Origin: a virus | Taxonomy: Duplodnaviria > Heunggongvirae > Uroviricota > Caudoviricetes | Length of the DNA stretch: 34,391 bases | Virus record (IMG/VR): IMGVR_UViG_2645727673_000011 | Coordinates: 1-34,391 of that record | Direction: 5' to 3' (one strand) | Shown here: positions 9,401-30,993 of the stretch, piece after piece | Layout of the letters: each line of letters opens with the position of its first letter | Numbering within the stretch: position 1 is the first letter of the stretch | The notes under the pieces: model-generated | The model's input: only the letters and a program-made list of their open reading frames with translations | Told to the model about the DNA's origin: nothing | The model's database searches: none | Position numbers and translations under genes: made by a program

Positions 9401-10338
9401 TTTATGTTGAAATAGGTAATTTCGCCACGGGTGTAAATATCCAGTGGGATTATACCAGTATTGGTGATATTGAAGCATCGGAGGGCATGGGGGCGCTGAA
9501 ACTCTTCCTTTCGCGAGCGTTTAATCCTAACGGCAATATTCTCCCTGGCATTATTGGTGAGGCTAAAAAGTATGTCAGCGAAGAAGAACTTGAGCATCTT
9601 GACCAACTACTTAAGCGATTCTCATATAACCCGCAGACACGCTGGCAAATGAATCAGCGAAGTATGGGTTCGGTCCACGAGAAAGTGTTATCTGCCATGA
9701 ACAGTGCGATCGCAAACTCATCCGTATCTGAAGAAAAAGCTCTTGAGTGGGCCGACTCTTTTATCACGGAAGAAGTGGAAGAAGCCCGCGCTGGACAGAA
9801 TGGTGGGATAGACCTGCGCAAGGAACTTGCTGATATTTATCGCCTGACCGGCGGTAAAATTTCGACCTTATCAAAGGTGGTTCACCACCAGGGAAGGGCA
9901 TATGCAAATCTTAATGGTGTTGTTGCTGTCAATTTGAACGATGAAAATGCAAGTGCACTGTGGCACGAGCTGGGTCATCATCTTGAGTACAGTAACCCTG
10001 GTTTGTTAGAGAAAGCCCGGTCATTCCTGAAGGCCAATGTTGAAGGGGATAAGCCATCTTTCGTTAATATCGGTGGGCGTGGCAAGCCTGAATGGTGCTT
10101 CAGATCTCGATTGAGTAATATTTATATGGCGAAGGTATACCCGCCAGCCTCAGTAAGTAACACCGGGAAAATTCGGCAGAAATCACCGACTATTTCCAAA
10201 ACGTCAGCAACGGAAGTATTCTCTATGGCTCTTCAGTTGTATCATGACAAAGAGGCCGCTGCCGCATCACTGATGAATGGTGACGGATTGCTGGAACTGT
10301 TATTAGGTGTGGCAAAGGAGCTAAATAATGCGGATTAA
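6403..10338 (+). CDS. S: Tail fibre protein S: P1/Mu-like constant N-terminal part joined to a divergent C-terminal part
   Basis: ATG at 6403 (MNDVTVVTSVTYPSPESLALVADVQYHEPYL...) with AAGGA upstream; this is in frame with the longer track ORF that starts inside R. Contains the TGTPTAPTAAQGTNSTQIANTAFV motif twice and five copies of a ~40-aa fibre repeat (ATKLQTARTIGGVSFDGSANI). Ends NNAD* at 10338. Confidence 0.85.
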   Translation: MNDVTVVTSVTYPSPESLALVADVQYHEPYLSAALNRKFRGIVDPGFYAGFFPKPGGGMNLLITSVDGDKTAGAASVNIGEFYQVTIQQRKDISLALSAGKKYAIVLKGRYLLGEDSYQVNTASHIHAAEFVARTYTDSYQLGDGELLVCTVNIPAGVSAITKEMIDVSDRIDLTIGIEISDSVTSTRSDVAASSLAVKKAYDLAKSKYTAQDASTTQKGLVQLSSATNSDSETMAATPKAVKSVKELADTKAPIESPSLTGTPTAPTAAQGTNSTQIANTAFVKAAITALINGAPGTLDTLKEIAAAINNDPNFSTTINNALALKAPLASPALTGIPTAPTAAQGTNNTQIATTAYVRAAISALVGSSPEALDTLNELAAALGNDPNFATTMTNALAGKQPLDATLTALAGLATGANKLPYFTGTDTVSQTDLTSVGRDILAKTSTLAVIQYLGLREIGTSGEKIPLLSTANTWSSQQTFKGKTAFSAAATFSAGIAGAIEPEAIDGRTIDLNDLIIANTEAGSVKYYQCKTVAGGANITNKPDGVSGNFLVRVESIRKTTGSDYANMQTLINSDTKRIYVRFVVNGNWTAWSQVVVSGWGQDVSVKSLSAVALSGSLTGNASTATKLQTARTIGGVSFDGSANIDLPGVNKAGNQSTTGNAATATKLQTVRTIGGVSFDGSANIDLPGVNKAGNQSTTGNAATATKLQTARTINGVKFDGSANISIPTITSRGRVTALTDTTQGAATGLQMYEAYNNSYPTAYGNVLHMKGASAAGEGELLIGWSGTSGAHAPVFIRSRRDHTDAAWSAWAQVYTSRDSIPGVNATGNQNTTGNAATATKLQTARTIGGVSFDGTANINLPGVNVAGNQNTSGNAATATKLQTARTINGVSFDGSKNIELTPRSIGTINSTTMSFSGGAGWFKLATVTMPQASSVVYISLIGSSGYNVNSPMQAGISELVLRAGNGNPKGLTGALWRRTSVGFTNFAWVNTSGDTYDVYVEIGNFATGVNIQWDYTSIGDIEASEGMGALKLFLSRAFNPNGNILPGIIGEAKKYVSEEELEHLDQLLKRFSYNPQTRWQMNQRSMGSVHEKVLSAMNSAIANSSVSEEKALEWADSFITEEVEEARAGQNGGIDLRKELADIYRLTGGKISTLSKVVHHQGRAYANLNGVVAVNLNDENASALWHELGHHLEYSNPGLLEKARSFLKANVEGDKPSFVNIGGRGKPEWCFRSRLSNIYMAKVYPPASVSNTGKIRQKSPTISKTSATEVFSMALQLYHDKEAAAASLMNGDGLLELLLGVAKELNNAD
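7751..7776 (+). other. cix/gix/hix-like DNA-invertase crossover site at the constant/variable junction of S
   Basis: ttatccaataccttggtttaagagaa; its reverse complement TTCTCTTAAACCAAGGTATTGGATAA matches the Hin hixL site TTCTTGAAAACCAAGGTTTTTGATAA (recalled from memory) at 21 of 26 positions. It encodes the VIQYLGLRE junction. Confidence 0.5.
8281..8520 (+). repeat. Two tandem copies of a 120-bp in-frame repeat inside S (about 95% identical); a third diverged copy follows at 8521 and two more at about 8890-9120
   Basis: Direct comparison of 8281-8400 with 8401-8520 shows about 6 mismatches in 120 bp. Each unit encodes a 40-aa repeat ending TGNAATATK. Confidence 0.85.
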
Positions 10339-10642
10339 AATCGCAGCGCCATTAGGCGGAGATGCCATTATCGAATTTGATGATAATGAAGAAGTTTCCG
10401 GGCGTTTAAGCATTATCTCCGGTGACATTACCGAGGACATGATCGCTGAAGCCATAGCAGGGGCAAATCCCAATAGCTATATGGGATTCGTTAACACCCT
10501 TGATGCTCCCGCAAGTGATGTTCTCCGAACGCTGCATCTTTACGCTGGCTGGTTTGTTGATTGGCCAGCAGTAGATGGTGGCGATGATGACGACGACGAC
10601 GACGATGATTTTGGTGATCATGTAGACCAGATCGTATATTAA
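10328..10642 (+). CDS. Small highly acidic protein with a poly-Asp tract, translationally coupled to the tail-fibre gene
   Basis: ATG at 10328 lies 9 nt after AAGGAG (10313-10318) and overlaps the last codons of S. The 104-aa product has about 24 acidic residues and a run of nine Asp. Confidence 0.6.
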   Translation: MRIKIAAPLGGDAIIEFDDNEEVSGRLSIISGDITEDMIAEAIAGANPNSYMGFVNTLDAPASDVLRTLHLYAGWFVDWPAVDGGDDDDDDDDDFGDHVDQIVY

Positions 10643-10707
10643 CTCCCTGATTGTGCACAAATAATCTGTTCTGATATGTTAATTGTGTACTTAAAGTAAA
10701 CGCGTAG

Positions 10708-10746
10708 TGGCTTGCTTTAGGTTATGGAAGCAAGCCATTTCCTATT
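10708..10746. terminator. Hairpin between the convergent tail-fibre operon (+) and the 201-aa gene (-); likely bidirectional terminator
   Basis: tggcttgctt (10708-10717) pairs with aagcaagcca (10728-10737) as a 10-bp stem with a 10-nt loop, followed by tttcctatt. Confidence 0.5.
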
Positions 10747-10754
10747 AAAGTAGA

Positions 10755-11360
10755 TCAAAAAACTTTAATTTTGGCGTTTCGCTCACCACATATTGAGCAC
10801 TTTAGCCGATTTTTTAAGTCTTCCAGAGTCAATCCTGAAGCTACATATTGTTTAATGTCTCTTTGAGAGAGTATCACTGGTTCACGGAACCTATAACCGC
10901 CGCAGAGATGTATTATCATTATCTCAGAATCATTTTCTAACCAGTCATTAAGAGTGTTGTGTGGTTTAGAAAGTCGCTCAATATCCAAACGCCATTGTTG
11001 GATTTCATTACTGTCCCAGTCGAGATTTAGTTTAGCACGTTGGGCAACGAACCGATGTTTTCCTCTGTTAATACTAGGTTCGTAGTCTTTTCGTTGATCG
11101 GTAGTAAGGTCCTCTTCGTATAGAAATGAATCATCGTTTTTATGAGTGGGTTCAAAAATTACTTCAATAAAACTTGGCTCATACGCGTTAAAGCTTTTTT
11201 TTCTTATGAATATCCCTTGTGTACCACTCCCGTTTAAATCAGCACAAAAATTAACATCTATTCCTCGACGAAGTGCGAAAAAATAGCTATGTTCCCTCAT
11301 GGCCACAGCTAATTTGGCTATATCTATAAGGTTGTGTATTTTATCAGAATATGTATTCAT
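10755..11360 (-). CDS. Hypothetical protein encoded by an AT-rich, probably horizontally acquired gene
   Basis: 201 aa from the ATG at 11360 (MNTYSDKIHNL...) preceded by GGAAG; the track start at 11375 is TTG. Local GC is about 33% by hand count of 10801-10860. I recognise no domain. Confidence 0.6.
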   Translation of the reverse strand: MNTYSDKIHNLIDIAKLAVAMREHSYFFALRRGIDVNFCADLNGSGTQGIFIRKKSFNAYEPSFIEVIFEPTHKNDDSFLYEEDLTTDQRKDYEPSINRGKHRFVAQRAKLNLDWDSNEIQQWRLDIERLSKPHNTLNDWLENDSEIMIIHLCGGYRFREPVILSQRDIKQYVASGLTLEDLKNRLKCSICGERNAKIKVF

Positions 11361-11541
11361 GAGGCTTCCAAGCAAATATCATGACAAGCATAAAGTGTTA
11401 AAGTAATGTTACGCATCTTAACAAAGTGACTCTTGATTAATTTTAATTCGCCCTATCTTGCTTGTCTAACCATCATTGCATATACAGAGGGCAAAGAATT
11501 ACACTTCATGTAATTTATTTCCCTTTAATTTCGTATTATCA

Positions 11542-11568
11542 GGGTGCTCTCTGGCACCCCTTTTTATT
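11542..11568 (+). terminator. Intrinsic terminator-like hairpin with a T tract on the plus strand
   Basis: gggtgc-tctctg-gcaccc followed by cTTTTTaTT. It lies just past the stop of the 264-aa minus-strand gene and would stop plus-strand read-through. Confidence 0.5.
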
Positions 11569-11578
11569 CTAGTAAAAA

Positions 11579-12373
11579 TTAATCACTTTCCACCTCTTCC
11601 GTGGTGTTTTCTTGCAGCTCTGCCAATGCAGTACGACACAGGTTCCTAGCATTGGCTATAGCCACACTTTTGACTTCATCCGTCATCGTGCAGGTAATGT
11701 ACTGATCGAGTTCTTCAGCGCGGATGATGCTTTTGCCAATCAGAAACTGTATTTGCCAGAGCAGATCGGCATCCATCATCAGAATTTCTGCCGAGCCTTC
11801 AGGGCCAGCCGGGAAGGAAACATAAGACTGTTTGCCCATGCCGATAACTCGACAACTTGCTTCAAGAATTGCGCGCTTGAGGTCTGACTTTGTAACGGAA
11901 ACAGGTTGGTTTTCACCAGTGATTATGCCGTTGACATGGAAGTGGAAGGGCATGTAGCTTGAAATACGCTCTACTTTCCACACGCCAGCAAGCGATCCTT
12001 CATGCAGCACAATGGGGGTAACCGCGAGTTTCATCTCACCATATAACTGCTGGCAGATAGCTGGATTGCTGAATACATCCAAAGGTTCACACTCAAACAG
12101 CGGCGCAATCTGTATGAGGTCCATCATGGTCATACCAGGGGTACGAGCAGTAATGAATCTGCGCATGCCAGTATCCATTGTGCGCCAGATAGCTACACCA
12201 TGCTTTTTGCTCACTTCTTCAGTAAAGCCAAGGTGGCACATGATGGTTTTTTCGATAGCCAGATCAGAGATCGAAACCTTTTCGCCAGGTACACCATCAT
12301 TATTGATGGTCACTTCTACACTCTGGCCATTACGCAGGCGGTATTGAATGGTTTTAGTATTTTGTGCTGTCAT
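11579..12373 (-). CDS. Hypothetical protein, 264 aa, acidic C-terminus
   Basis: ATG at 12373; backbone-like GC; no recognisable motif. Sits where the darA/lyd/cin block lies in P1 as I recall it. Confidence 0.6.
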   Translation of the reverse strand: MTAQNTKTIQYRLRNGQSVEVTINNDGVPGEKVSISDLAIEKTIMCHLGFTEEVSKKHGVAIWRTMDTGMRRFITARTPGMTMMDLIQIAPLFECEPLDVFSNPAICQQLYGEMKLAVTPIVLHEGSLAGVWKVERISSYMPFHFHVNGIITGENQPVSVTKSDLKRAILEASCRVIGMGKQSYVSFPAGPEGSAEILMMDADLLWQIQFLIGKSIIRAEELDQYITCTMTDEVKSVAIANARNLCRTALAELQENTTEEVESD

Positions 12374-12387
12374 AGTCTTTTCTCTGC

Positions 12388-12570
12388 TTAAAAACTGATG
12401 TATTGCGCCTTCAGGTTGGTTAGGAATGTTTTCCCACCAGCGAAAGCAATATCTCGGGGTGTTCTATTCGTTAAAAGCGCGTGCCATTGCCAACTTTGGC
12501 GTTTGTTTGCGAGTTCGTGCTTTTGTCGGCGTCTTGACCACCGCTTTTCTTTCAGTCGTTTTTTACTCAT
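12388..12570 (-). CDS. Possible small basic protein (60 aa, Lys/Arg-rich N-terminus)
   Basis: ATG at 12570, 6 nt downstream of the ssb stop. Ribosome-binding site is weak, so this may be spurious. Confidence 0.3.
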   Translation of the reverse strand: MSKKRLKEKRWSRRRQKHELANKRQSWQWHALLTNRTPRDIAFAGGKTFLTNLKAQYISF

Positions 12571-16879: not shown

Positions 16880-19800
16880 ATGAACAAGCTATATATGCGG
16901 GTGTTTCGCTGTTCAAGTGTCAGCGAAATATTGAAATACATTAGGGCAATAACATCTCACCGAGCGCCGATTAAATACGGCGTGGAAAAGGTGGAAGGCA
17001 AAAGCTATGACCGACTGCGCCGGGAGGCGAATCAGAAGGCGATAGATTTGCTTAATTCGCTGGTGGACGGCGCGACACTGACAGATGAACAGCGCCAGAT
17101 CCTGGCTGGGTACACCGGTGAAGGCGGCATTGGCGGGTCCGTCTCCGAATATTACACACCAAAGCCGATCGCTGAAGGTGTCTGGGAGATCATGAAGCTC
17201 TACGGCGCGGACGTAGGTAACACTCTGGAACCATCGGCGGGAACCGGCGTTTTTAATGAGACAAAACCGGTTGGTACGGTGATGACCGCGACTGAGATCA
17301 GCAGTGTTTCCGGTCGTATAAACCAGTTGTTACACCCGGAAGACAGCGTACAGATTTCCCCGTTCGAACAGCTGGCTATAAGCACGCCTAACGATTCATT
17401 CGACCATGTTGTGGGTAACGTTCCGTTCGGCGGTCGTGATAACACACGCAACATCGATAAGCCTTACGCAGAAGAAACGGACATGGGTTCTTACTTCATG
17501 CTCCGCATGCTGGACAAGATAAAGCCAGGCGGATTCATGTGCGTGATTGTGCCGCCGTCCATTGTTTCAGGTTCAAACATGAAGCGGTTACGCCTGCGCT
17601 TATCCCGTAAAGCTGAATTTCTTGGCGCTCACCGCTTGCCTACCGGTACTTTTGACGCAAACGGGACCAGTACAGTCGTTGATGTGGTGCTGATGCGCAA
17701 ACATCCGGCGGAGATGGCTGAGAAAATCCCCCTGGTGGATGAAGGTACTCTTGAATCGGCAAATGTGCTTTGGCCAACGTTTATTTCTGGCAAGTGGTTT
17801 GAAAAGGACGGCCGCCGGTTTGTTCATGGCACTCAGGAGAAGGGATTCCAGGGGCGTATTGAGGTTCGTGCCGACGGGCAGATTGATAACCAGGCTCTTA
17901 AAGCGAAGCTGATTCATCGTTTCGAAAGTCGTATCGACTGGTCTTTGCTCGATATGGCTGAACCGTCACCGACCGCAGATGTTGTTGATGAAGGGGAAAT
18001 GCGCCTGATTAATGGCGTATGGCAAAAATATGCTGGTGGTCGCTGGATTGAAGCTGATGCCGGGAAGGAGCTGAAGATTGATGTTGCCAGTTATGGCGCG
18101 GATAGCTGGGAGGCTCTTCAGCGTAACCTGACTACCACAGAAGGTCGTCTCGGCATGACATTTACCCAGATGGCAAATGTCCGCGATAAGTACACCACAT
18201 CAATCAGCGACGATATGGTGCAGTTGGTGGACTGGATTAACAGCCAACCTGAAAAATACCGTGAACGCTTGTATCGCGGAGCGATGATTGGCCGGATGTT
18301 AATTGAATATCAGGACATGAAGGCCGCCGGGCATAGTGCTGAACAAATCGAACAGCAGCGCCTTTCTCTGGTATCCCGTTTGCAGGCAGAGATTGACCGT
18401 TTTGGTAACCCCGGTCGCGGTCCGATAGCGAAATTATCGGGGAGCGGTGCGCGCGCCTGGTTTGCTTTCCGTGGTGCAATTAAGCTGGATGGCACTATTT
18501 CTGACGAGCTGACAGGAAAGCTGGTTACGCATGATTCCAGCGCCAGTTATGACTCCACCAGCTATCAGGACACCCTGCGTTATCTCTATAGCGATCTTAC
18601 CCGCGATCCAATCCAGCTCGATGATTTCCGCCTTGCGTTTACCGGCGAACTGCCAGCCAGTGATGAAGAGTTGCTTAATTTATTGGCCAGCACCCCTGGT
18701 ATTGCGGTTTCACCGTATGGCGGGATTGTTCCGTTCGCCCGCGCCACCAGCGGCGACATTAACGAGATAGTGGCTCCAAAACAGGAATTCCTTGCCACAC
18801 TCCCCGACGGTCCAGTAAAAAACAACGTCCTTAATCAGCTGGCAGCGATCGAAGAGAAGCGCATCAAGACGCCAGCAGAGAATATCCGCTTTAAGCTCAA
18901 TAGCCGTTGGTTCGACCGCTCCGTCATTCTGGAGTTTTTGCAGGAAAACGGCTATCCGGATCTGCGCTATGTGCAGTCAGTGCAGCTGGAAGGCGACGAA
19001 ATGGTTTCTGACACCTATCACGGTGGTGATGGTCTGTTCGTCGGGCACCGATACGGTGTCGTCCAGCGCAAGGATAAAGAAACAGGCGAGATCCGCTACG
19101 AGTGGGACCGTAAATCAGGTGAAAACGCGACCGGGTTCCCGGCACAGCTGGAAAAGTATCTCAATGGTGCGCGTATCGGTGGCAAAGATAGCGCGACGGC
19201 GAACGGCTACCGCGAGCAGATGGCACTGCTTGAGGACCAGTTCAATAAGTGGATCAAGACGCACGATCGCTACGATGAGCTGGTTGCCAAATACAACGAT
19301 GTGTTCAATAGCAATATCCCGTATGAACACTCTGGCGATCCGCTTGGGTTGAAGGGATTAAGCGGTAAGCGCCAGCCATTTGATTACCAGAATAGCGAGG
19401 TGCGCCGACTGTCCGAAGATGGGCGCGGCATCCTGGGCTTTGGCACCGGGCTGGGTAAAACCACGACCGCGCTGGCGCTTGAGGCGTTCAACTATGAGAA
19501 CGGTCGCTCTACCCGTACTGCGTATGTAGTGCCTAAATCAGTGCTGGAAAATTGGTATTACGAAACAAAAGAATTCCTGAGTGAAGAGGCATTCAGTAAC
19601 TACCTGTTCGTCGGTCTTGATGTGCTGATGGATGGCGATCAGATTCGCCAGGTGCCGGTGCTCGATGAGAACGGTAAACCTGTTCTTGGTACTGATGGCA
19701 CTCCAGTTATGCGCGATGCTCTTAAGCTGGCAGATGAAGCCACTATCACGGCGCGGATGAACGCGATCCCGCACTCAAATTACCGTGCAGTCGTGTTTAC

Positions 19801-22800
19801 CAAAGAACAATACGCCCGCATTCCGCTACGTGATGACACCATAGATGAGCATGCACAGGATATGCTTTATGACTTCGTTGCCGCCGGGCGCGTAGCCAGT
19901 GCAATGGATTCCGACTCCCACCGCAAAGAGGCCGCGCGTCGCCGGGTATTGTCGGAGTATTCAGATACCGGTACCGAAAAAGCAGAGAAGTATCCGTACT
20001 TTGAGGATATGGGCTTCGACAGCGTGATTGCTGACGAAGGCCACAACTACCGCAATTGCTATAAAAATGGTCGCGAAGCGTCACAACTGGCCTATCTGCC
20101 CACCAGCGCGGTGGCGCAATCGGCGCGAGATATGGCAATTAAAAACGCGTACCTGATGAAAAAGAATGGCGGGCGCGGGCCGGTTCTCCTGACTGCAACG
20201 CCAGTCGTTAACACCCCGATCGATGCATACAACATGCTTTCTCATGTTCTGCCGAAGGAATACTGGCAGAACATGGGGATCTACGGTCCTGATGACTTCG
20301 TTAAATTCTTCGGCAAGACCAGGCTGGAAACGGTACAGAAAATCAGCGGTGAAGTTGAAGAAAAAATGGCGCTGGTGGGCTTTGAAAACCTTGATGCGCT
20401 GCGCGGTATATTCCATCGCTGGGTAACGCTTAAAACGGCGGAAGACGTTAAGGATACCGTGGAGATCCCGGAGCTGGACGAACACCAGCAGGATGCACCA
20501 CTTACTGAAGAACAACTGGCGGCGTATGAAGAATTGCGTCAGCAGGCGGAAGCGGCGGCCAAAGCCAACAATGGCGTAACGACCTCGGTCAATGAAGACG
20601 GCGTGATTGAGCACGAGAAAGCCCGTCCGATCTTCTCAATAATCAGGGATATGGACCGCGTATGTACTGACATGGACCTGTACTATCGCCGGATCACCTA
20701 TCGTTTCCTGCCGGAGTACGCCGATGCGGTGCAGCAGCTGGCGGACAGTTTGCCTAAACAAGCCACCAGCGAAGACGACGACAGTGATGATTCAATCACG
20801 CAGCAATCGCAATACTCCCTGATAGATAAGGGCGAGTTTATTCAGTTGCAGGTTCCGGAAGCGTTCGAGCAGGAAGTGAATAAGCGCCTGGCCAGGTTTG
20901 GCATTGACGAACAGACCGTAACTCACCCCGTTACGCCGAAATACGCGAAGCTGATCGCCACGCTGAAGGAGTTTTTCCCGGAAGGTAAGCAAATCATCTT
21001 CACCGATGAAAAAACGAAGCACCAGAAGCTCAAGCGCATTATCTGCAATGCTCTAAACCTTGAACCTTCAAAGGTGGGGATCCTGAATGCTCAGACGGTT
21101 GCCGAGGCAGGTAAAACCGGTAAGAAACTGAAAGCGGTTAAACCGCCGAAAGAGCTACCGGATGAACCAACAGATGCACAGATAGCGAAATACAACGAGC
21201 AAATGGCTCTGTATGACGCCTATATCGCGCAGCAAAATGAAATGTCGTTGGGCGGTCTGGAAAAGATTGCAGCCGACTTCCAGGAGGGCCGGACTCCGAT
21301 CATCATCTGCAACAAAAAGGCAGAGGTGGGTATCAACCTGCATCGAGGAACGACGGATATCCACCACCTGACGTTGCCGTGGACACCAGCCAGTATCGCA
21401 CAGCGTAACGGTCGCGGTGCCCGAGTTGGTTCCAACCGTGCAAGCGTTCGCGTTCACTACTACTGCGGCAAGGGGTCTTTCGATGAATACCGACTGAAGA
21501 CGCTGAAGCGTAAAGCAGGCTGGATCTCCGATATCCTCCGTTCAGATAAGTCAGAAATGGAGAACGCCGATGCCAATGACATGATCGAAATGCAGATGTA
21601 TACCGCGAAGGATGACGGCGAACGTCTGGCAATGATGCAGGTTCAAATGGATAAGGCGAAAGCTGCGAAACGCGCTCGCCAGAAAGAACAGGCTACTATC
21701 GACCTTCAGAACTACATCAAGGCGCAGCACGCAGCTGGCGAGGATGTGGAGGTACTTACCGCTGAATTAGAGCGAAGCAAAGCGGAACTTGAAAAGACCA
21801 CCGTCGAGGTAGCTAAATTCAAACAGGCGGCAATGGCCAAGGCAGCGGATAACGCAGACTGGAAGGCCCGCTGGGGGAGTGTCCATCACACAGACCGTAT
21901 GTTGTTAGCACAGTATCGCGCGTCGTTGAAAAGCGCCATTCAGCGCAAGGCTAATATCTCTCAGGCCATCTCCCGCTATGAGAAATTATTGAACCGTACT
22001 CAGAAGGCCGCGACGGATATCAAACGCCTGCGCCCGCTGATGGAGGATGCAATAAATAAAGGCATTCTGGATATTGATCCTGACATGGTTAACCATGCGA
22101 GTGAGTTCCTTGTTATCGGCGATCGCTCATGGCGTGTAGGCCAATACTACGATTGTGCCGGTGATATCGTTCGCATTAAGTCGCTGGACTTCGACAGCCA
22201 GCGCGCAGACGTGGAGATCATCTTCACCTTCAAAGGCACCAAATCTGGTAATTGGGATGTGAAGACGCTGGATAAACAGGTTGATGTAACTCCTGATGAA
22301 GATGCTGTTATGCAGAAAATCAGTGGTGGCGTCTCCATCGCCGGGATTAACGACATCATTTCCTGTGACGATTTCTACCGTTTCCGGCAGCGCGGCATGA
22401 TCAAAATCACTGACTCATACGGCGTTCAGACTACAGAGTCAGGCTATAGCATTGATTTTGTTGGTACCTATACGGACCCACTGAAGCATGCGGTTTACCC
22501 GGATCGCCGTGACGGCGCGCTGAAGTCGTCAATTGCAAAATGGGTGCTTGGTATGATGTCGGAAGGGAATAACCGCCAGATCCGTTCGGCAGAAACATTC
22601 CTGGTTGAATTGTTTGGCTCCAATTATGGCGATGTAATCGCGTCATACGGAGATACGCTATCCCCTGAAGTAATTCAGGAGAAAATAGCGGATGCGATCG
22701 CAAAAATGCCGGAGAAAACAAGCCAGGGGGCTACTCGTAACGGGGATTCTGAACTTGAGGTCACCAATGCCATTTTCGGTACCCATGAGTTCCGGGCGTC

Positions 22801-23647
22801 AGATTATGAGATCACCACAGCACAGTTTGGCACCATTGGCATTTACAGCAATAAAGCCGAGATCAAGCAGGCAATGGACGCAGCAAGCGCGCGCATCGCA
22901 GCAGAACGGGAAGCCAATCTGAATCATGCAGTCGCCGCACTGACTCAATCGTGGGTAACAGCAATCAGGGAGGCCGCCACCACAGGGAAAATCACACCTG
23001 CAATTGCGGATGTCGTAAACGACGGCTCTAAATTTATGGATGCCTATCAAATGGATGCGGTGCAGTTGCCATCAGCCTATGGCCAATTCAGCTATCGCAT
23101 GACCTACAACCTGGTATCAATGTTTTCCGACCTTGCCATCCTTGGGCTGGTGGATCTTAACGAGGTTACGCCGGAATTGCTCAGCATGCGCAAGAATCAT
23201 GTGGAGATATTGCAGAGAATTAACACGGTTCTTGCCGGGCGCACCGATGAAGAGAAACAGGCCGACGCTGATCGGATAAACCTGGCCCTTGGCAACATCA
23301 CGGAGGAAGAAATTGCCGCCAGAAACGAGAAACAAGAAGAGTTATCATCAATACAGGGTGATGCCACCAGCATAGCTCAGTCTCTTGGTCTGAATTATCG
23401 CGTATCCACCGCCGACCTGAAGATGATGTACGCACCAAAATTCGCCGCTGGCGAGGTATTTGGGCTTCAGGAAGCCTCAGGCATGAAAGGCGTTCTTTTC
23501 CGTGCGAAAGACGCAATCAAGGCGAAATTCGGCGCTCGCTGGCTGCCAGCGAAGGCGAAGAACAGCGATTTCCCGGGTAACTGGTGGATTATCGAGACAA
23601 AACACAACGTGGCGGACGTTCTGGCCGTCATCCAACAATACGCATAA
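16880..23647 (+). CDS. darB: DarB antirestriction protein: N-terminal N6-adenine methyltransferase-like domain plus DExH helicase domain
   Basis: 2255 aa, the length I recall for P1 DarB. Methyltransferase-like motif HVVGNVPFGG; helicase Walker A GFGTGLGKTT and motif II IADEGHNYRN. Confidence 0.9.
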   Translation: MNKLYMRVFRCSSVSEILKYIRAITSHRAPIKYGVEKVEGKSYDRLRREANQKAIDLLNSLVDGATLTDEQRQILAGYTGEGGIGGSVSEYYTPKPIAEGVWEIMKLYGADVGNTLEPSAGTGVFNETKPVGTVMTATEISSVSGRINQLLHPEDSVQISPFEQLAISTPNDSFDHVVGNVPFGGRDNTRNIDKPYAEETDMGSYFMLRMLDKIKPGGFMCVIVPPSIVSGSNMKRLRLRLSRKAEFLGAHRLPTGTFDANGTSTVVDVVLMRKHPAEMAEKIPLVDEGTLESANVLWPTFISGKWFEKDGRRFVHGTQEKGFQGRIEVRADGQIDNQALKAKLIHRFESRIDWSLLDMAEPSPTADVVDEGEMRLINGVWQKYAGGRWIEADAGKELKIDVASYGADSWEALQRNLTTTEGRLGMTFTQMANVRDKYTTSISDDMVQLVDWINSQPEKYRERLYRGAMIGRMLIEYQDMKAAGHSAEQIEQQRLSLVSRLQAEIDRFGNPGRGPIAKLSGSGARAWFAFRGAIKLDGTISDELTGKLVTHDSSASYDSTSYQDTLRYLYSDLTRDPIQLDDFRLAFTGELPASDEELLNLLASTPGIAVSPYGGIVPFARATSGDINEIVAPKQEFLATLPDGPVKNNVLNQLAAIEEKRIKTPAENIRFKLNSRWFDRSVILEFLQENGYPDLRYVQSVQLEGDEMVSDTYHGGDGLFVGHRYGVVQRKDKETGEIRYEWDRKSGENATGFPAQLEKYLNGARIGGKDSATANGYREQMALLEDQFNKWIKTHDRYDELVAKYNDVFNSNIPYEHSGDPLGLKGLSGKRQPFDYQNSEVRRLSEDGRGILGFGTGLGKTTTALALEAFNYENGRSTRTAYVVPKSVLENWYYETKEFLSEEAFSNYLFVGLDVLMDGDQIRQVPVLDENGKPVLGTDGTPVMRDALKLADEATITARMNAIPHSNYRAVVFTKEQYARIPLRDDTIDEHAQDMLYDFVAAGRVASAMDSDSHRKEAARRRVLSEYSDTGTEKAEKYPYFEDMGFDSVIADEGHNYRNCYKNGREASQLAYLPTSAVAQSARDMAIKNAYLMKKNGGRGPVLLTATPVVNTPIDAYNMLSHVLPKEYWQNMGIYGPDDFVKFFGKTRLETVQKISGEVEEKMALVGFENLDALRGIFHRWVTLKTAEDVKDTVEIPELDEHQQDAPLTEEQLAAYEELRQQAEAAAKANNGVTTSVNEDGVIEHEKARPIFSIIRDMDRVCTDMDLYYRRITYRFLPEYADAVQQLADSLPKQATSEDDDSDDSITQQSQYSLIDKGEFIQLQVPEAFEQEVNKRLARFGIDEQTVTHPVTPKYAKLIATLKEFFPEGKQIIFTDEKTKHQKLKRIICNALNLEPSKVGILNAQTVAEAGKTGKKLKAVKPPKELPDEPTDAQIAKYNEQMALYDAYIAQQNEMSLGGLEKIAADFQEGRTPIIICNKKAEVGINLHRGTTDIHHLTLPWTPASIAQRNGRGARVGSNRASVRVHYYCGKGSFDEYRLKTLKRKAGWISDILRSDKSEMENADANDMIEMQMYTAKDDGERLAMMQVQMDKAKAAKRARQKEQATIDLQNYIKAQHAAGEDVEVLTAELERSKAELEKTTVEVAKFKQAAMAKAADNADWKARWGSVHHTDRMLLAQYRASLKSAIQRKANISQAISRYEKLLNRTQKAATDIKRLRPLMEDAINKGILDIDPDMVNHASEFLVIGDRSWRVGQYYDCAGDIVRIKSLDFDSQRADVEIIFTFKGTKSGNWDVKTLDKQVDVTPDEDAVMQKISGGVSIAGINDIISCDDFYRFRQRGMIKITDSYGVQTTESGYSIDFVGTYTDPLKHAVYPDRRDGALKSSIAKWVLGMMSEGNNRQIRSAETFLVELFGSNYGDVIASYGDTLSPEVIQEKIADAIAKMPEKTSQGATRNGDSELEVTNAIFGTHEFRASDYEITTAQFGTIGIYSNKAEIKQAMDAASARIAAEREANLNHAVAALTQSWVTAIREAATTGKITPAIADVVNDGSKFMDAYQMDAVQLPSAYGQFSYRMTYNLVSMFSDLAILGLVDLNEVTPELLSMRKNHVEILQRINTVLAGRTDEEKQADADRINLALGNITEEEIAARNEKQEELSSIQGDATSIAQSLGLNYRVSTADLKMMYAPKFAAGEVFGLQEASGMKGVLFRAKDAIKAKFGARWLPAKAKNSDFPGNWWIIETKHNVADVLAVIQQYA

Positions 23648-24366: not shown

Positions 24367-24525
24367 ACTTCCCCAAATAATGGCTGTTTGCTCGCCGAGC
24401 ATCGCTCAAAGAAACACGATTATTCAAACATATAGATAGTGATAGTGCCCTCGTATAAGTGTGACAACTTCTGGCTCTAGTGGGCTGGGGAGGCGGCGCT
24501 TTGTTGCTAAATGATCTGGTTTAAA

Positions 24526-26466
24526 ATGGATATGAAAAAAGAAACGATTTTTTCCGAAGTAGAAACGGCTAACAGCAAGCAACTGGCTGTGTTGAAAGCT
24601 AATTTCCCTCAGTGTTTTGATAAAAACGGAGCCTTCATTCAAGAAAAATTGCTTGAGATTATTAGGGCATCGGAAGTTGAACTCTCTAAAGAATCATACA
24701 GCTTGAACTGGCTGGGTAAATCTTATGCCCGTTTGTTGGCCAATCTACCACCGAAAACGTTGTTGGCAGAAGATAAAACTCATAACCAACAAGAAGAGAA
24801 CAAGAACAGTCAACACCTGTTAATCAAAGGGGATAATCTCGAAGTATTGAAGCATATGGTTAATGCTTACGCTGAAAAGGTGAAGATGATTTACATTGAC
24901 CCACCATACAATACAGGTAAGGATGGGTTCGTTTATAATGATGATCGCAAATTTACACCTGAGCAGCTTTCTGAACTAGCAGGCATCGACCTCGATGAGG
25001 CTAAACGCATATTAGAATTTACCACCAAGGGGTCAAGCAGTCATAGTGCATGGCTGACATTCATTTACCCACGCCTTTATATTGCTCGTGAATTAATGAG
25101 AGAAGACGGGACTATTTTTATTTCTATTGACCATAATGAGTTCAGTCAATTAAAACTAGTTTGCGACGAGATCTTTGGTGAGCAAAACCATGTTGGGGAT
25201 CTAGTATGGAAAAATGCAACTGATAACAACCCTTCAAATATCGCTGTAGAGCATGAATATATTATTGTTTACACAAAAAACAAAGAGCAGCTTATAAGTG
25301 AGTGGAAATCTAATATCTCCGATGTAAAAAACTTACTTGTCAACATAGGTGAAGAATTTGCATCAAAATACACTGGCAATGAACTTCAGGAAAAATATAC
25401 CCAGTGGTTTCGTGAACACAGATCTGAATTATGGCCTCTTGACCGATACAAATATATAGACAAAGACGGCATCTATACTGGTAGTCAGAGCGTCCACAAC
25501 CCCGGAAAAGAGGGTTACAGATATGATATTATACATCCAAAAACTAAGAAGCCATGCAAACAACCTCTTATGGGATATCGTTTTCCATTAGATACAATGG
25601 ATAGGCTTCTGTCTGAAGAAAAGATCATCTTCGGTGATGATGAAAACAAAATTATAGAACTAAAAGTTTATGCTAAGGATTACAAACAGAAATTAAGCTC
25701 CGTTATCCATCTTGATGGGCGTGTTGCAACGAACGAACTTAAAGAGCTGTTCCCAGAAATGACTCAACCATTCACAAATGCTAAAACTATAAAATTAGTA
25801 GAAGATTTAATATCTTTTGCATGTGATGGAGAGGGTATTGTTTTGGATTTTTTTGCTGGGTCAGGAACTACAGCGCATACAGTTTTTAATTTGAATAACA
25901 AAAATAAAACGTCGTATCAGTTTATTACAGTTCAACTAGATGAACCTACAAAAGATAAATCTGATGCCATGAAGCATGGCTATAATACAATATTTGACTT
26001 AACAAAGGAGCGTTTAATTAGGGCGTCTAAAAAAAATAGGGATCAGGGGTTTAAGGTATATCAACTAATGCCAGATTTTCGCGCTAAAGACGAATCAGAA
26101 CTTACACTGTCTAATCATACATTCTTTGATGATGTTGTCTTGACGCCTGAACAATATGACACTCTATTAACTACATGGTGCCTGTATGATGGCAGTTTGC
26201 TAACAACACCTATTGAAGATGTTGATCTTGGTGGCTACAAAGCACATTTGTGCGATGGTCGTCTGTATTTGATTGCACCTAATTTTACTAGCGAAGCATT
26301 GAAAGCGTTACTTCAAAAGGTGGATTCAGACAAAGACTTTGCTCCAAACAAAGTCGTGTTTTATGGCAGCAATTTTGAAAGCGCAAAGCAAATGGAACTC
26401 AATGAAGCACTAAAAAGTTATGCTAATAAAAAATCTATTGAGTTAGATTTGGTGGTGAGGAACTAA
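24526..26466 (+). CDS. mod: Type III restriction-modification methyltransferase (Mod), EcoP1I-like
   Basis: N6-adenine methyltransferase motifs DPPYNTG and FFAGSGTTAH. In-frame ATGs at 24511, 24526 and 24532; I chose 24526 because it gives 646 aa, the length I recall for P1 Mod. Confidence 0.85.
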   Translation: MDMKKETIFSEVETANSKQLAVLKANFPQCFDKNGAFIQEKLLEIIRASEVELSKESYSLNWLGKSYARLLANLPPKTLLAEDKTHNQQEENKNSQHLLIKGDNLEVLKHMVNAYAEKVKMIYIDPPYNTGKDGFVYNDDRKFTPEQLSELAGIDLDEAKRILEFTTKGSSSHSAWLTFIYPRLYIARELMREDGTIFISIDHNEFSQLKLVCDEIFGEQNHVGDLVWKNATDNNPSNIAVEHEYIIVYTKNKEQLISEWKSNISDVKNLLVNIGEEFASKYTGNELQEKYTQWFREHRSELWPLDRYKYIDKDGIYTGSQSVHNPGKEGYRYDIIHPKTKKPCKQPLMGYRFPLDTMDRLLSEEKIIFGDDENKIIELKVYAKDYKQKLSSVIHLDGRVATNELKELFPEMTQPFTNAKTIKLVEDLISFACDGEGIVLDFFAGSGTTAHTVFNLNNKNKTSYQFITVQLDEPTKDKSDAMKHGYNTIFDLTKERLIRASKKNRDQGFKVYQLMPDFRAKDESELTLSNHTFFDDVVLTPEQYDTLLTTWCLYDGSLLTTPIEDVDLGGYKAHLCDGRLYLIAPNFTSEALKALLQKVDSDKDFAPNKVVFYGSNFESAKQMELNEALKSYANKKSIELDLVVRN

Positions 26467-26468
26467 TC

Positions 26469-29381
26469 ATGTCAAAAGGGTTCACTCTCGAAAAGAACTT
26501 GCCGCATCAGAAAGCAGGAGTCGATGCGGTGATGAATGTTTTTGTTTCCGCAACACCTCACCTGACGGATAATGTTGCTGTTCGCCTTTTAGCTAATCCT
26601 GAACTGAAGCTGTCTGAACAACAATACTACAACAATATAAAAAATGTTCAGGCGTTCAATGGTATTGCGCACTCAAAAGATAATCACAATGCTAAAAGCA
26701 ACATCATTGATGTTTCTATGGAGACAGGTACAGGCAAGACGTACACCTATATCAAAACTATTTTTGACCTGAATAAATCATTTGGTATTAACAAGTTTAT
26801 CATCATTGTTCCGACTCTATCTATCAAGGCCGGAACCGTTAACTTTTTAAAAAGTGATGCTTTAAAAGAACACTTCCGGGATGATTACAAGCGTGAGCTG
26901 AGAACTTACGTTGTTGAAAGTCAGAAAAACGCTGGCAAAAATACAAAATCGTATATGCCTCAGGCTATACATGATTTTGTTGAAGCAAGTAACTTCAATA
27001 AAAAATATATACACGTTCTTGTTATTAACTCAGGAATGATCAACTCTAAGTCTTTAACGGATACTTACGATACTGGCTTGCTTGATAATCAGTTTAATAC
27101 TCCAGTTGACGCGCTCAGAGCTGTAAAACCATTTATCATCATTGACGAACCACATAGATTTCCTACTGGTAAAAAAACATGGGAAAACATAGAGAAATTT
27201 AACGCACAATATATTATCCGCTATGGCGCAACCTTTAGCGAAGGCTATAAGAACCTGGTTTATCGTCTTACAGCCGTGGACGCATTTAACGATGATCTCG
27301 TTAAAGGTATTGATGCATATATTGAGGATATAGTCGGCGATGGTAACGCAAACCTCAAATTCGTCAAATCTGACGGAAAGGAAGCTACATTTGAACTGAA
27401 TGAAAACAACAACAAAAAATCGTTTAAGTTAGCTAAAGGTGAATCACTGTCTAAGACGCATAGTGCGATCCATGATTTAACTCTTGATGCTTTAAACAAG
27501 AGCACAGCAGTGTTGAGTAATGGTATTGAGTTGAAGATTGGTAGCTCAATAAATCCCTATTCTTACGATCAGACACTCGCTGATAACATGATGCGTAAGG
27601 CTGTCAAAGAACACTTTAAGTTAGAAAAAGAACTTCTGACACAAAGGCCACGCATAAAGCCTCTTACTCTTTTCTTTATTGACGATATTGAAGGCTATCG
27701 TGACGGTAATGATATTTCCGGAAGCCTGAAGACCAAATTCGAAGAATACGTTCTGGCAGAAGCTAATGAACTGTTAAAAACAGAGCAAGATGCGTTTTAT
27801 AAAAACTATCTTGAAAAAACAGTCACAAATATATCTTCCGTTCATGGTGGTTATTTCTCAAAAGATAACAGTGATAAGGATGATAAAATCGAGCAGGAAA
27901 TCAACGAAATCCTTCATGACAAAGAGCTTTTGCTGTCTTTAGATAATCCCCGTCGGTTTATTTTCTCAAAATGGACGTTGCGTGAGGGGTGGGATAATCC
28001 TAATGTTTTTCAGATCTGTAAGCTCCGTTCGAGCGGTAGTACCACATCTAAGCTTCAAGAGGTAGGGCGCGGTTTGCGTCTTCCTGTGAATGAATACATG
28101 TGTCGAGTGAAAGACCGCAATTTTACCCTTAAATATTATGTTGATTTTACAGAAAAGGATTTTGTTGACTCACTTGTTAAAGAGGTCAACGAGAGTTCTT
28201 TCAAAGAAAGAGTTCCAAGTAAGTTTACTCAAGAGCTTAAGGAACAAATCATGGCTCAGTATCCTGAGCTTTCATCCAGAGCACTAATGAATGAACTTTT
28301 CAATGATGAAATCATTGATGACAATGATAATTTCAAAGATTCAGATGCCTATAGCCGCTTAAAATCCAAATATCCAGCAGCATTCCCTATAGGAGTGAAA
28401 CCTGGTAAAATCAAAAAAGCTACTGATGGAAAAAGACGCACTAAAATGCGTGTTGGTAAGTTCAGTGAGCTGAAAGAACTATGGGATTTGATCAATCAAA
28501 AAGCGGTGATTGAGTACAAAATAAACAGTGAAAGTGAATTTTTATCCATTTTCAAGTCATTCATGCTCGAAGAAACAGAACGATTTACCAAATCAGGCGT
28601 TCATACTCGCATTGATAAAATTTACATCCACAATGATATGGCAATGTCGAAAAGCATTGTCAGTGATGACGATGACTTTGCTAAGCTGAACACAATGAGC
28701 TATCGAGAGTTTCTCGATAACTTATCACAGACTATTTTTGTTAAACACGGTACTTTACATAAAGTTTTTTGTGATATAAAAGACACTATTAATATCACTG
28801 AATACCTTAATATTCAAACAATCAGAAAAATTAAATCTGGTTTTAGTAAGTATTTGTTGAACAATTCGTTTAATAAATTCAGCCTCGGATATAATTTGAT
28901 TTCGGGTTCAATTCATCCTACAAAGTTCACAAATGCTGATGGTAATCCTCTAGGCGAGGTATTATCAAGTGATCTTGGTGTATTGCAGGATAATGCAAAA
29001 GCACCATTAGATACTTATCTTTTTGAAGAAGTTTTTTATGATTCAGAGCTTGAAAGGCGTAATATAACAGATAGAGAGATCCAGTCTGTTGTTGTTTTTT
29101 CAAAGATACCGAAGAATTCTATTAAGATCCCGGTAGCTGGTGGATACACTTACTCACCCGATTTTGCTTATGTTGTAAAAACAGCGGAAGGTGATTATCT
29201 TAATTTTATCATTGAAACAAAAAACGTAGATAGTAAGGATAGTTTACGGCTTGAAGAAAAACGGAAAATTGAACATGCCCAAGCGCTTTTCAATCAAATA
29301 AGTCAGTCTGTTAAAGTTGAATTCAGAACGCAGTTTGCTAATGATGATATTTATCAGTTAATCAAGAGCGCATTACCATAA
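26469..29381 (+). CDS. res: Type III restriction endonuclease subunit (Res), EcoP1I-like
   Basis: 970 aa, ATG 2 nt after the mod stop with GAGGAA upstream. Helicase Walker A METGTGKTYTY and motif II IIIDEPH; C-terminal PD-(D/E)xK-like nuclease motif (SPDFAYVVK ... IIETKN). Confidence 0.9.
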   Translation: MSKGFTLEKNLPHQKAGVDAVMNVFVSATPHLTDNVAVRLLANPELKLSEQQYYNNIKNVQAFNGIAHSKDNHNAKSNIIDVSMETGTGKTYTYIKTIFDLNKSFGINKFIIIVPTLSIKAGTVNFLKSDALKEHFRDDYKRELRTYVVESQKNAGKNTKSYMPQAIHDFVEASNFNKKYIHVLVINSGMINSKSLTDTYDTGLLDNQFNTPVDALRAVKPFIIIDEPHRFPTGKKTWENIEKFNAQYIIRYGATFSEGYKNLVYRLTAVDAFNDDLVKGIDAYIEDIVGDGNANLKFVKSDGKEATFELNENNNKKSFKLAKGESLSKTHSAIHDLTLDALNKSTAVLSNGIELKIGSSINPYSYDQTLADNMMRKAVKEHFKLEKELLTQRPRIKPLTLFFIDDIEGYRDGNDISGSLKTKFEEYVLAEANELLKTEQDAFYKNYLEKTVTNISSVHGGYFSKDNSDKDDKIEQEINEILHDKELLLSLDNPRRFIFSKWTLREGWDNPNVFQICKLRSSGSTTSKLQEVGRGLRLPVNEYMCRVKDRNFTLKYYVDFTEKDFVDSLVKEVNESSFKERVPSKFTQELKEQIMAQYPELSSRALMNELFNDEIIDDNDNFKDSDAYSRLKSKYPAAFPIGVKPGKIKKATDGKRRTKMRVGKFSELKELWDLINQKAVIEYKINSESEFLSIFKSFMLEETERFTKSGVHTRIDKIYIHNDMAMSKSIVSDDDDFAKLNTMSYREFLDNLSQTIFVKHGTLHKVFCDIKDTINITEYLNIQTIRKIKSGFSKYLLNNSFNKFSLGYNLISGSIHPTKFTNADGNPLGEVLSSDLGVLQDNAKAPLDTYLFEEVFYDSELERRNITDREIQSVVVFSKIPKNSIKIPVAGGYTYSPDFAYVVKTAEGDYLNFIIETKNVDSKDSLRLEEKRKIEHAQALFNQISQSVKVEFRTQFANDDIYQLIKSALP

Positions 29382-30955: not shown

Positions 30956-30993
30956 GGGGTCGTCTCAGAAAACGGAAAATAAAGCACGCTAAG
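30956..30993. repeat. 38-bp terminal inverted repeat of a Tn21-subgroup Tn3-family transposon (tnpA-proximal end)
   Basis: GGGGTCGTCTCAGAAAACGGAAAATAAAGCACGCTAAG; the tnpA stop codon lies inside it, as is usual for Tn3-family elements. Confidence 0.8.

Follow-up and report, generated by a model that had tools for sequence, protein, structure and literature searches.

How has a phage tail fibre come to end in a sequence that resembles a zinc metallopeptidase? This question is raised by an ORF of 1311 aa, which spans from an ATG at position 6403 to a stop codon at 10336-10338 of a DNA stretch of 34,391 nt (IMG/VR record IMGVR_UViG_2645727673_000011), in the following called the window. Its N-terminus is that of the tail-fibre protein S of phage P1, and R (PF26881) and gp16 precede it. 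The original prediction had located the sequence WHELGHHLEY at nt 9961-9990 of this ORF, and this position proved to be exact. It had further been proposed that an extension of about 260 aa, beginning at 9550, follows the receptor-binding region and constitutes an intramolecular chaperone or an enzymatic tip, which would allow the fibre to dispense with a U/Tfa chaperone. The comparison with related plasmids leads to a different answer. It is highly probable that an 8.3-kb deletion joined S codon 1019 to ddrB codon 704, and that the ORF is a relic of prophage decay, not a new fibre design.

Origin of the 1311-aa ORF

The tail-fibre part of the ORF and its upstream neighbour comprise the following features:

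5957-6391, plus strand: R, a baseplate/tail-fibre-associated gene (PF26881, Phage_P1_tail_fiber_R), 100% identical to pDETEC1 and directly upstream of S
6403-9459, plus strand: tail-fibre gene S, codons 1-1019 only (proximal part and shaft, truncated), with Phage_fiber_2 repeats
8263-8568, plus strand: tandem repeat of 120 nt (40 aa) in the S shaft, detected by TRF

The Phage_fiber_2 match of the S part has an E-value of 1.7e-28 (Pfam). The copy number of the shaft repeat differs among relatives, and there is a 120-nt offset relative to pMB3362_2. Positions 2900-9460 of the window are 100% identical to the plasmid pDETEC1 (NZ_CP116167.1) and about 99% identical to pMB3362_2 (NZ_CP103706.1). 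Beyond this point S runs on in both plasmids, and in pMB3362_2 it reaches a length of 1515 aa. Positions 9461-12500 of the window are again 100% identical to pDETEC1 and pMB3362_2, but the matching sequence is located 8.3 kb farther along both plasmids.

The sequence beyond the breakpoint belongs to ddrB. From position 9460 onward, the encoded protein has 100% amino acid identity to residues 704-995 of DdrB from pMB3362_2 (WP_139507501). It also matches positions 704-995 of the 995 positions of phrog_2299, a phrog of unknown function (PHROGs, E 2.9e-171). Applying megablast to positions 9000-11500 and the phage records, the stretch 9459-11493 was aligned with P1 25421-23394 at a nucleotide identity of 97.8%; this P1 interval contains the 3' end of ddrB, followed by hxr and isaB. 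Past isaB, the window is collinear with the reversed P1 map (ssb, lyz, pro, prt, darB), and the IS1 of P1 is missing. A base-by-base comparison placed the junction at 9459/9460, where the parental sequences have only the dinucleotide TA in common. The breakpoint corresponds to residue 1059 of the intact 1515-aa S and to codon 1019 of the S gene in the window. These alignments identify the 1311-aa ORF as a chimera, which consists of the S fibre up to the breakpoint and of DdrB residues 704-995 thereafter. The foreign segment is therefore longer than had been proposed; it starts at nt 9460, not at 9550, and comprises 292 aa. The corresponding features are:

9459-9460, no strand: deletion junction with the 2-nt TA common to both parental sequences (three-way sequence comparison)
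9460-10338, plus strand: ddrB codons 704-995 and stop codon, continuing the reading frame of S (292 aa, the C-terminal 32 kDa of DdrB)
10328-10642, plus strand: hxr, 104 aa with a poly-Asp tail (P1 annotation; phrog_2292, E 1.9e-60)
10755-11360, minus strand: isaB, 201 aa (P1 annotation; collinear with P1)
16880-23647: DarB, whose gene is still present in the window

With the C-terminus of P1 DdrB, the segment has in common the HExxH motif, the high nucleotide identity given above and the arrangement of the downstream gene: hxr overlaps the stop codon of the 1311-aa ORF by 11 nt, as it overlaps that of ddrB in P1. In contrast to P1 DdrB, the N-terminal 703 residues (ddrB-ParB and linker) are exchanged for 1019 residues of S, and the ddrA-ddrB operon context is gone from the window. 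Given this gene order, hxr is the native downstream neighbour of ddrB and neither a chaperone nor an immunity gene. A polymorphic toxin system, in which the peptidase would be the toxin and the acidic 104-aa ORF the immunity protein, was considered and rejected, because this ORF is hxr, the normal ddrB neighbour in P1.

Gene content of the deleted interval

The missing content was read from the annotation of pMB3362_2 and from Pfam and PHROG scans. S has lost its last 456 codons, which encode residues 1060-1515 of the intact 1515-aa protein. According to Pfam, these residues contain a Gp34_trimer domain (residues 1090-1167) and the glycine-rich tip Gly_rich_2 (residues 1324-1512). As both domains lie past the breakpoint, S of the window lacks the distal trimerisation/receptor-binding tip, and the extension does not follow a receptor-binding region, contrary to the initial assumption. 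Also lost are the tail-fibre assembly ORF (Caudo_TAP) located directly after S in pMB3362_2, 51 codons left over from the cin recombinase gene, the genes lydC, lydA, lydB, hdf, darA and ddrA, and codons 1-703 of ddrB, including the ddrB-ParB domain (Pfam).

The missing U/Tfa chaperone gene, which had been pointed out for the region downstream of the fibre, is absent from the whole 34.4-kb window: no match was obtained by tblastn when the intact relative's Caudo_TAP ORF served as query, and PF02413 matched none of the called genes. Judged by the comparison with the parental plasmids, this gene is missing through deletion and not through replacement. The proposal of a fibre architecture that dispenses with U/Tfa is thereby contradicted, because the putative chaperone or enzymatic tip is DdrB 704-995, placed there by the 8.3-kb deletion.

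The S fibre of P1 is served by the chaperones U and U' and has a Cin-invertible C segment. The ORF of the window resembles this system in its N-terminal 1019 aa and in the upstream R gene; it differs from it by lacking the distal 456 aa, the Tfa ORF and the cin remnant. The intact sister plasmids possess a single Tfa ORF and a decayed cin, and therefore have no working inversion switch. A Cin-mediated deletion at a quasi-cix site was likewise rejected as unsupported, since the parents contain the 51-codon remnant of cin and the breakpoints share just TA.

Conservation and fold of the zincin domain

The peptidase features within the DdrB segment, whose residues are numbered from its first codon, are as follows:

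9814-10335, plus strand: zincin-like metallopeptidase (MPTase) core, residues about 119-292 of the segment
9964-9987, plus strand: HELGHHLE, the HExxH zinc-binding/catalytic motif and the nearly invariant E176 (conservation among homologues)
10090-10092, plus strand: E211, an invariant Glu 38 residues past the second His and a candidate third zinc ligand
10213-10215, plus strand: E252, an invariant Glu in a TEVFSM motif and an alternative candidate third ligand

When 1.84 billion representatives were scanned in full with HMMER, 377 relatives of the domain were obtained at E<=1e-3. Motif conservation was scored on 149 divergent aligned segments from homologues below 60% identity. Residues H169, E170 and H173 (nt 9964-9966, 9967-9969 and 9976-9978) are invariant in all 148 homologues of this set that cover the motif, and E176 is conserved in 147 of the 148. 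E252 is invariant where covered (36/36) and also in alignments A1 and A2; the E211 column is invariant in the 20-sequence alignment A2. For the third zinc ligand, presumably a Glu, there are three candidates, namely E176, E211 and E252, each of which is invariant or nearly so. With such conservation across divergent homologues, HExxH is not a chance motif.

An AF2 model was built from the 20-sequence alignment. The predicted structure has a zincin fold and, together with the conserved HExxH motif, it identifies the segment as a zincin-type metallopeptidase domain. The signature noted in the original prediction is in this respect borne out, and of the profile and structure searches proposed there, the modelled fold and the motif conservation gave support; assignment to a curated peptidase family did not succeed. 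For the C-terminal 290-292 aa, Pfam listed no family at E<=0.1 and only a sub-threshold LPD5 match, and an NCBIfam scan gave no hit. A profile search against PDB sequences produced no meaningful match to any chain, and Foldseek found nothing for the domain in the PDB. Gluzincins of the anthrax-lethal-factor-like/Pro-Pro endopeptidase type (MEROPS M34) and of the MtfA type (M90) have an identity of only 13-15%.

The zincin domain itself is already known. The GenBank record of P1 annotates DdrB (P1_gp022, YP_006491.1, 995 aa) as a "possible metallopeptidase" (Łobocka 2004), and Iyer, Burroughs, Anand, de Souza and Aravind assigned a zincin-like MPTase to the C-terminus of DdrB, which they placed in the class of polyvalent proteins (Iyer 2017, PMC5512222). 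The MPTases of polyvalent proteins form 12 divergent clades (PMC5512222). For DdrB it was predicted that the MPTase autoprocesses the protein to the polypeptide of 76 kDa (~700 aa) reported to be packaged in the head (PMC5512222). The idea of a self-processing domain, which had been put forward for the fibre, agrees with this prediction for the domain in native DdrB, and has there the status of a prediction only.

In homologues, the N-terminal partners of the peptidase are ddrB-ParB, Phage_Mu_F (MuF) or InPase domains. The partner in the ORF of the window is the S fibre and not one of these polyvalent head-protein domains, which is due to the deletion. Among the 150 representative homologues listed (of 377), fibre sequence was absent, except for the proteins of the deletion lineage and the protein P0006 described below.

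These data bear on the view that the metallopeptidase is a genuine C-terminal module of an evolved fibre, either as a self-cleaving intramolecular chaperone or as an enzymatic tip, and that U/Tfa is unnecessary for this reason. It would be in line with an in-frame fusion, with an intact and conserved catalytic motif, with the lack of a Tfa gene in the window, and with the autoproteolysis predicted for the domain in DdrB (Iyer 2017). Moreover, S and ddrB are fused in frame a second time, at a different junction (L006/P0006). However, sister plasmids that possess the complete 1515-aa S, the tip and the Tfa ORF encode a DdrB whose residues 704-995 are 100% identical to the segment. Since both flanks, too, match these intact plasmids at about 100% identity, the deletion must be very recent. 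A fibre of this kind would also have to do without the Gp34_trimer and glycine-rich tip domains, and nine other genes or remnants, head and lysis genes among them, were deleted at the same time. Finally, within the listed homologues the domain never occurs on a fibre outside the deletion lineage, and Pfam detected neither Peptidase_S74 nor another known fibre-chaperone signature. An evolved fibre is therefore considered very unlikely.

S74 domains are serine-lysine peptidases that are conserved at many fibre ends. The Peptidase_S74/endosialidase CIMCD domains and the domain of the window are alike in forming the C-terminal end of a fibre protein and in a proposed autoproteolytic release. They differ in that the latter is a zincin, has no S74 signal (Pfam) and, among the homologues listed, occurs on a fibre only in the deletion lineage.

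Reality and recurrence of the junction

The window originates from E. coli ST410 isolate Pa1s, sample SAMN03466682, which was obtained from a case of human sepsis in Italy (PMC4498120). The sequence stems from a MiSeq draft assembly (60x, 237 contigs), and the junction is present in no finished plasmid, phage or genome searched. It is crossed by 0 of the 620 PLSDB plasmid records with a match, by 0 of 631 matching records from 615 complete E. coli genomes, and by none of the 23 matching phage records in INPHARED. Likewise, a 40-nt exact junction string gave no match in IMG/VR, the GTDB representative genomes or the JGI metagenomes. These results would fit a short-read mis-join of S and ddrB in a plasmid that is in truth intact.

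Several observations make such an artefact extremely improbable. An exact-protein look-up found the 1311-aa fusion protein on four contigs, including LBBD01000045.1, which is the window, and JADAQM010000040.1. The latter is a 44-kb contig from a different assembly; in the 20,338 bases compared, junction included, it does not differ from the window at any position. The longest contig bearing the fusion has 94,279 bp. A cluster at 90% identity contains the further proteins P0159, P0160 and P0161 with the same junction peptide (WDYTS/IGDIEASEG, the slash marking the junction). P0159 is a variant of 1271 aa with one 40-aa shaft repeat fewer and is encoded on a contig of 94,159 bp; two junction-bearing members of the cluster are partial proteins from other submissions. 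All fusion carriers found are draft or automated assemblies. The two parental sides share just 2 nt, too little for an assembler to join them. The sequence data thus identify the deletion as real and as clonally inherited in a small plasmid lineage.

A contig from an unrelated read set (Logan contig L006, protein P0006) contains a different in-frame S::ddrB junction plus another deletion. Its S-to-ddrB deletion overlaps the one described here without being identical to it, so the S-to-ddrB interval has apparently been lost repeatedly. The search for S::ddrB fusions was biased, as it could recover in-frame products only.

Probable consequences for the phage-plasmid

Which events would explain these findings? 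Most probably, a P1-like phage-plasmid (Punavirus) of E. coli ST410 Pa1s underwent a single illegitimate recombination at a microhomology of 2 nt, by which about 8.3 kb between S codon 1019 and ddrB codon 704 were excised. The two reading frames would have been joined in frame by chance, which is to be expected in one of three cases, and the product is the 1311-aa chimera of the proximal/shaft part of S and the last 292 aa of DdrB.

In P1, DdrB is located inside the head and belongs to the Dar anti-restriction system; Hdf and DarA are head-size determinants that are needed to load DdrA, DdrB, DarB and Ulx (PMC9024508, PMC12810830). By analogy with P1, the deletion would have left the fibre without its trimerisation/receptor-binding end and its chaperone, and the head without the size determinants DarA and Hdf. 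DarB, although still encoded, would be orphaned because the proteins needed for its loading are lost. The lysis pair LydA/LydB would be missing, too. With the fibre tip and the chaperone, head-size and lysis genes lost, infectious particles are not expected, and the element would persist as a plasmid. Most likely, it is a defective prophage that survives in this form. An observation that speaks against a loss of infectivity is that lydD/lydE, the second holin set of P1, is kept in the window.

The fusion ORF itself is most likely a by-product without a function in the fibre. Since the late operon is silent in the lysogen, the chimeric ORF would cost nothing. If the fusion is expressed, the predicted peptidase domain might or might not release itself. 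The fusion being in frame, the persistence of the lineage in several isolates and the different in-frame junction of L006 could hint that such fusions are tolerated or selected. One may imagine that the fusion of S and the DdrB MPTase is not inert and is recurrently selected. With late expression, the trimeric shaft of the fibre would bear a zincin that is intact and probably autoproteolytic. Such chimeras might act as self-cleaving truncated fibres that poison superinfecting P1-like phages during their assembly, or provide a new enzymatic tip. We consider such a role very improbable.

Gene loss is known to turn P1-like phage-plasmids into mere plasmids (Pfeifer and Rocha 2024, PMC10879196). 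Like other defective phage-plasmids (PMC10879196), the element described here is a P1-like replicon that lacks essential late genes and is ~100% identical to apparently complete elements; unlike for those, one deletion is documented here and the rest of the plasmid is located on other contigs. Selection may have favoured the deletion: with the fibre tip, the holin/antiholin genes and the head-size determinants removed, the prophage would be disarmed, and the plasmid and its cargo would be kept free of any risk of lysis. This possibility, to which we assign a minor but appreciable likelihood, would refine the explanation by prophage decay and not replace it: the origin of the fusion would be the same, and the fusion ORF itself would be irrelevant. 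The lineage persists in several isolates on contigs of up to 94 kb, in another P1-like element an S-to-ddrB deletion that overlaps this one but differs from it is accompanied by more losses, and a Tn3-family transposon is located on the same contig; these findings, like the known route from phage-plasmid to plasmid (PMC10879196), would agree with selection. However, the persistence is equally well explained if the plasmid hitch-hiked clonally with ST410, a successful lineage.

Implications

The feature is real but ordinary, as a known peptidase domain occurs at an accidental location. The result is mainly a correction: two well-known P1 genes were joined by a deletion, and the scar gave the impression of a new type of tail fibre. 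In RefSeq the chimera bears the misleading name "pyocin knob domain-containing protein" (WP_404854525.1). The junction clearly marks a lineage of defective P1-like plasmids, to which an E. coli ST410 isolate contributes one member, and it provides an example of the decay of a P1-like phage-plasmid into a plain plasmid.

The position of the breakpoint is of additional interest. The mass of DdrB residues 1-700 is 76.3 kDa, that of the full precursor 108.7 kDa. The native cleavage site would therefore be very near the breakpoint at residue 704, which coincides with the predicted boundary of the 76-kDa processing product, and the fusion could serve as a natural cleavage-site reporter.

A second S::ddrB fusion and other deletions in DdrB

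Another in-frame S::ddrB fusion is found at positions 1948-3066 of L006, a Logan contig of 6394 bp (SRR17182953) from a P1-like element other than that of the window. The peptide at the joint of its fusion protein P0006 reads ...TPRSI|SKVVHHQ.... In window coordinates, the junctions of L006 correspond to 9123|9869 and 3745|8448. The breakpoints of its S::ddrB fusion fall outside those of the window fusion, and a second deletion took out everything from bplA up to and including the 5' portion of S. The position of isaB is occupied by a HipA-like gene. Since its flanks are 2-5% divergent from the window, the S::ddrB deletion in L006 probably arose independently of the one in the window.

P0015, a protein of 699 aa, is a DdrB variant with an in-frame internal deletion (joint ...GDLT|LEYSNPG...). 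The approximately 300 missing residues include the histidines of the HExxH motif. In P1-like plasmids, deletions appear to hit DdrB often.

RefSeq lists the chimeric protein of the window (WP_404854525.1) as "pyocin knob domain-containing protein", a name that gives no hint of its DdrB segment or of its peptidase motif.

Fibre chaperone, invertible segment and shaft repeat

The intact sister plasmids, too, contain just one small Caudo_TAP (Tfa/U-type chaperone) ORF after S, and cin is present only as a remnant. The features of the sister plasmid pMB3362_2 (L003) are:

10858-11268, small, single Caudo_TAP ORF after S, flagged by RefSeq as an N-terminally truncated pseudogene
11391-11559, frameshifted 51-codon cin remnant

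In the lineage of the window and pMB3362_2, the invertible C segment known from P1 (Sv/U versus Sv'/U') has already decayed and become locked.

The S shaft of the window contains the following repeat, whose copy number varies among close relatives:

8263-8568, 120-nt (40-aa) tandem repeat

The window has one unit less than pMB3362_2, and P0159, a 1271-aa variant of the window fusion protein, has one unit less than the window.

Neighbouring genes and mobile elements

Further features of the window are:

10328-10642, Hxr, a possible Xre-like repressor according to the P1 annotation
16880-23647, darB, 2255 aa, intact
24511-26466, mod, 651 aa, type III restriction-modification
26469-29381, res, 970 aa, type III restriction-modification
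30989-33955, minus strand, Tn3-family transposase gene

Hxr ends in an acidic C-terminal tail with a run of eight Asp residues (GGDDDDDDDDFGDH); a Pfam scan gave no HTH match at E<=1. darB is intact despite the deletion of the loading factors darA, hdf and ddrB, and is followed by the type III mod/res pair as in P1.

In P1, IS1 sits between isaB and isaA, whereas the window lacks it; here, two alignments overlap by 9 nt in a clean join at the P1 IS1 position (11485-11493). Similarly, the IS4321 copy that adjoins the Tn3-family transposase gene in pMB3362_2 is missing from the window (position 30977). The mobile-element sequence runs off the end of the window contig.
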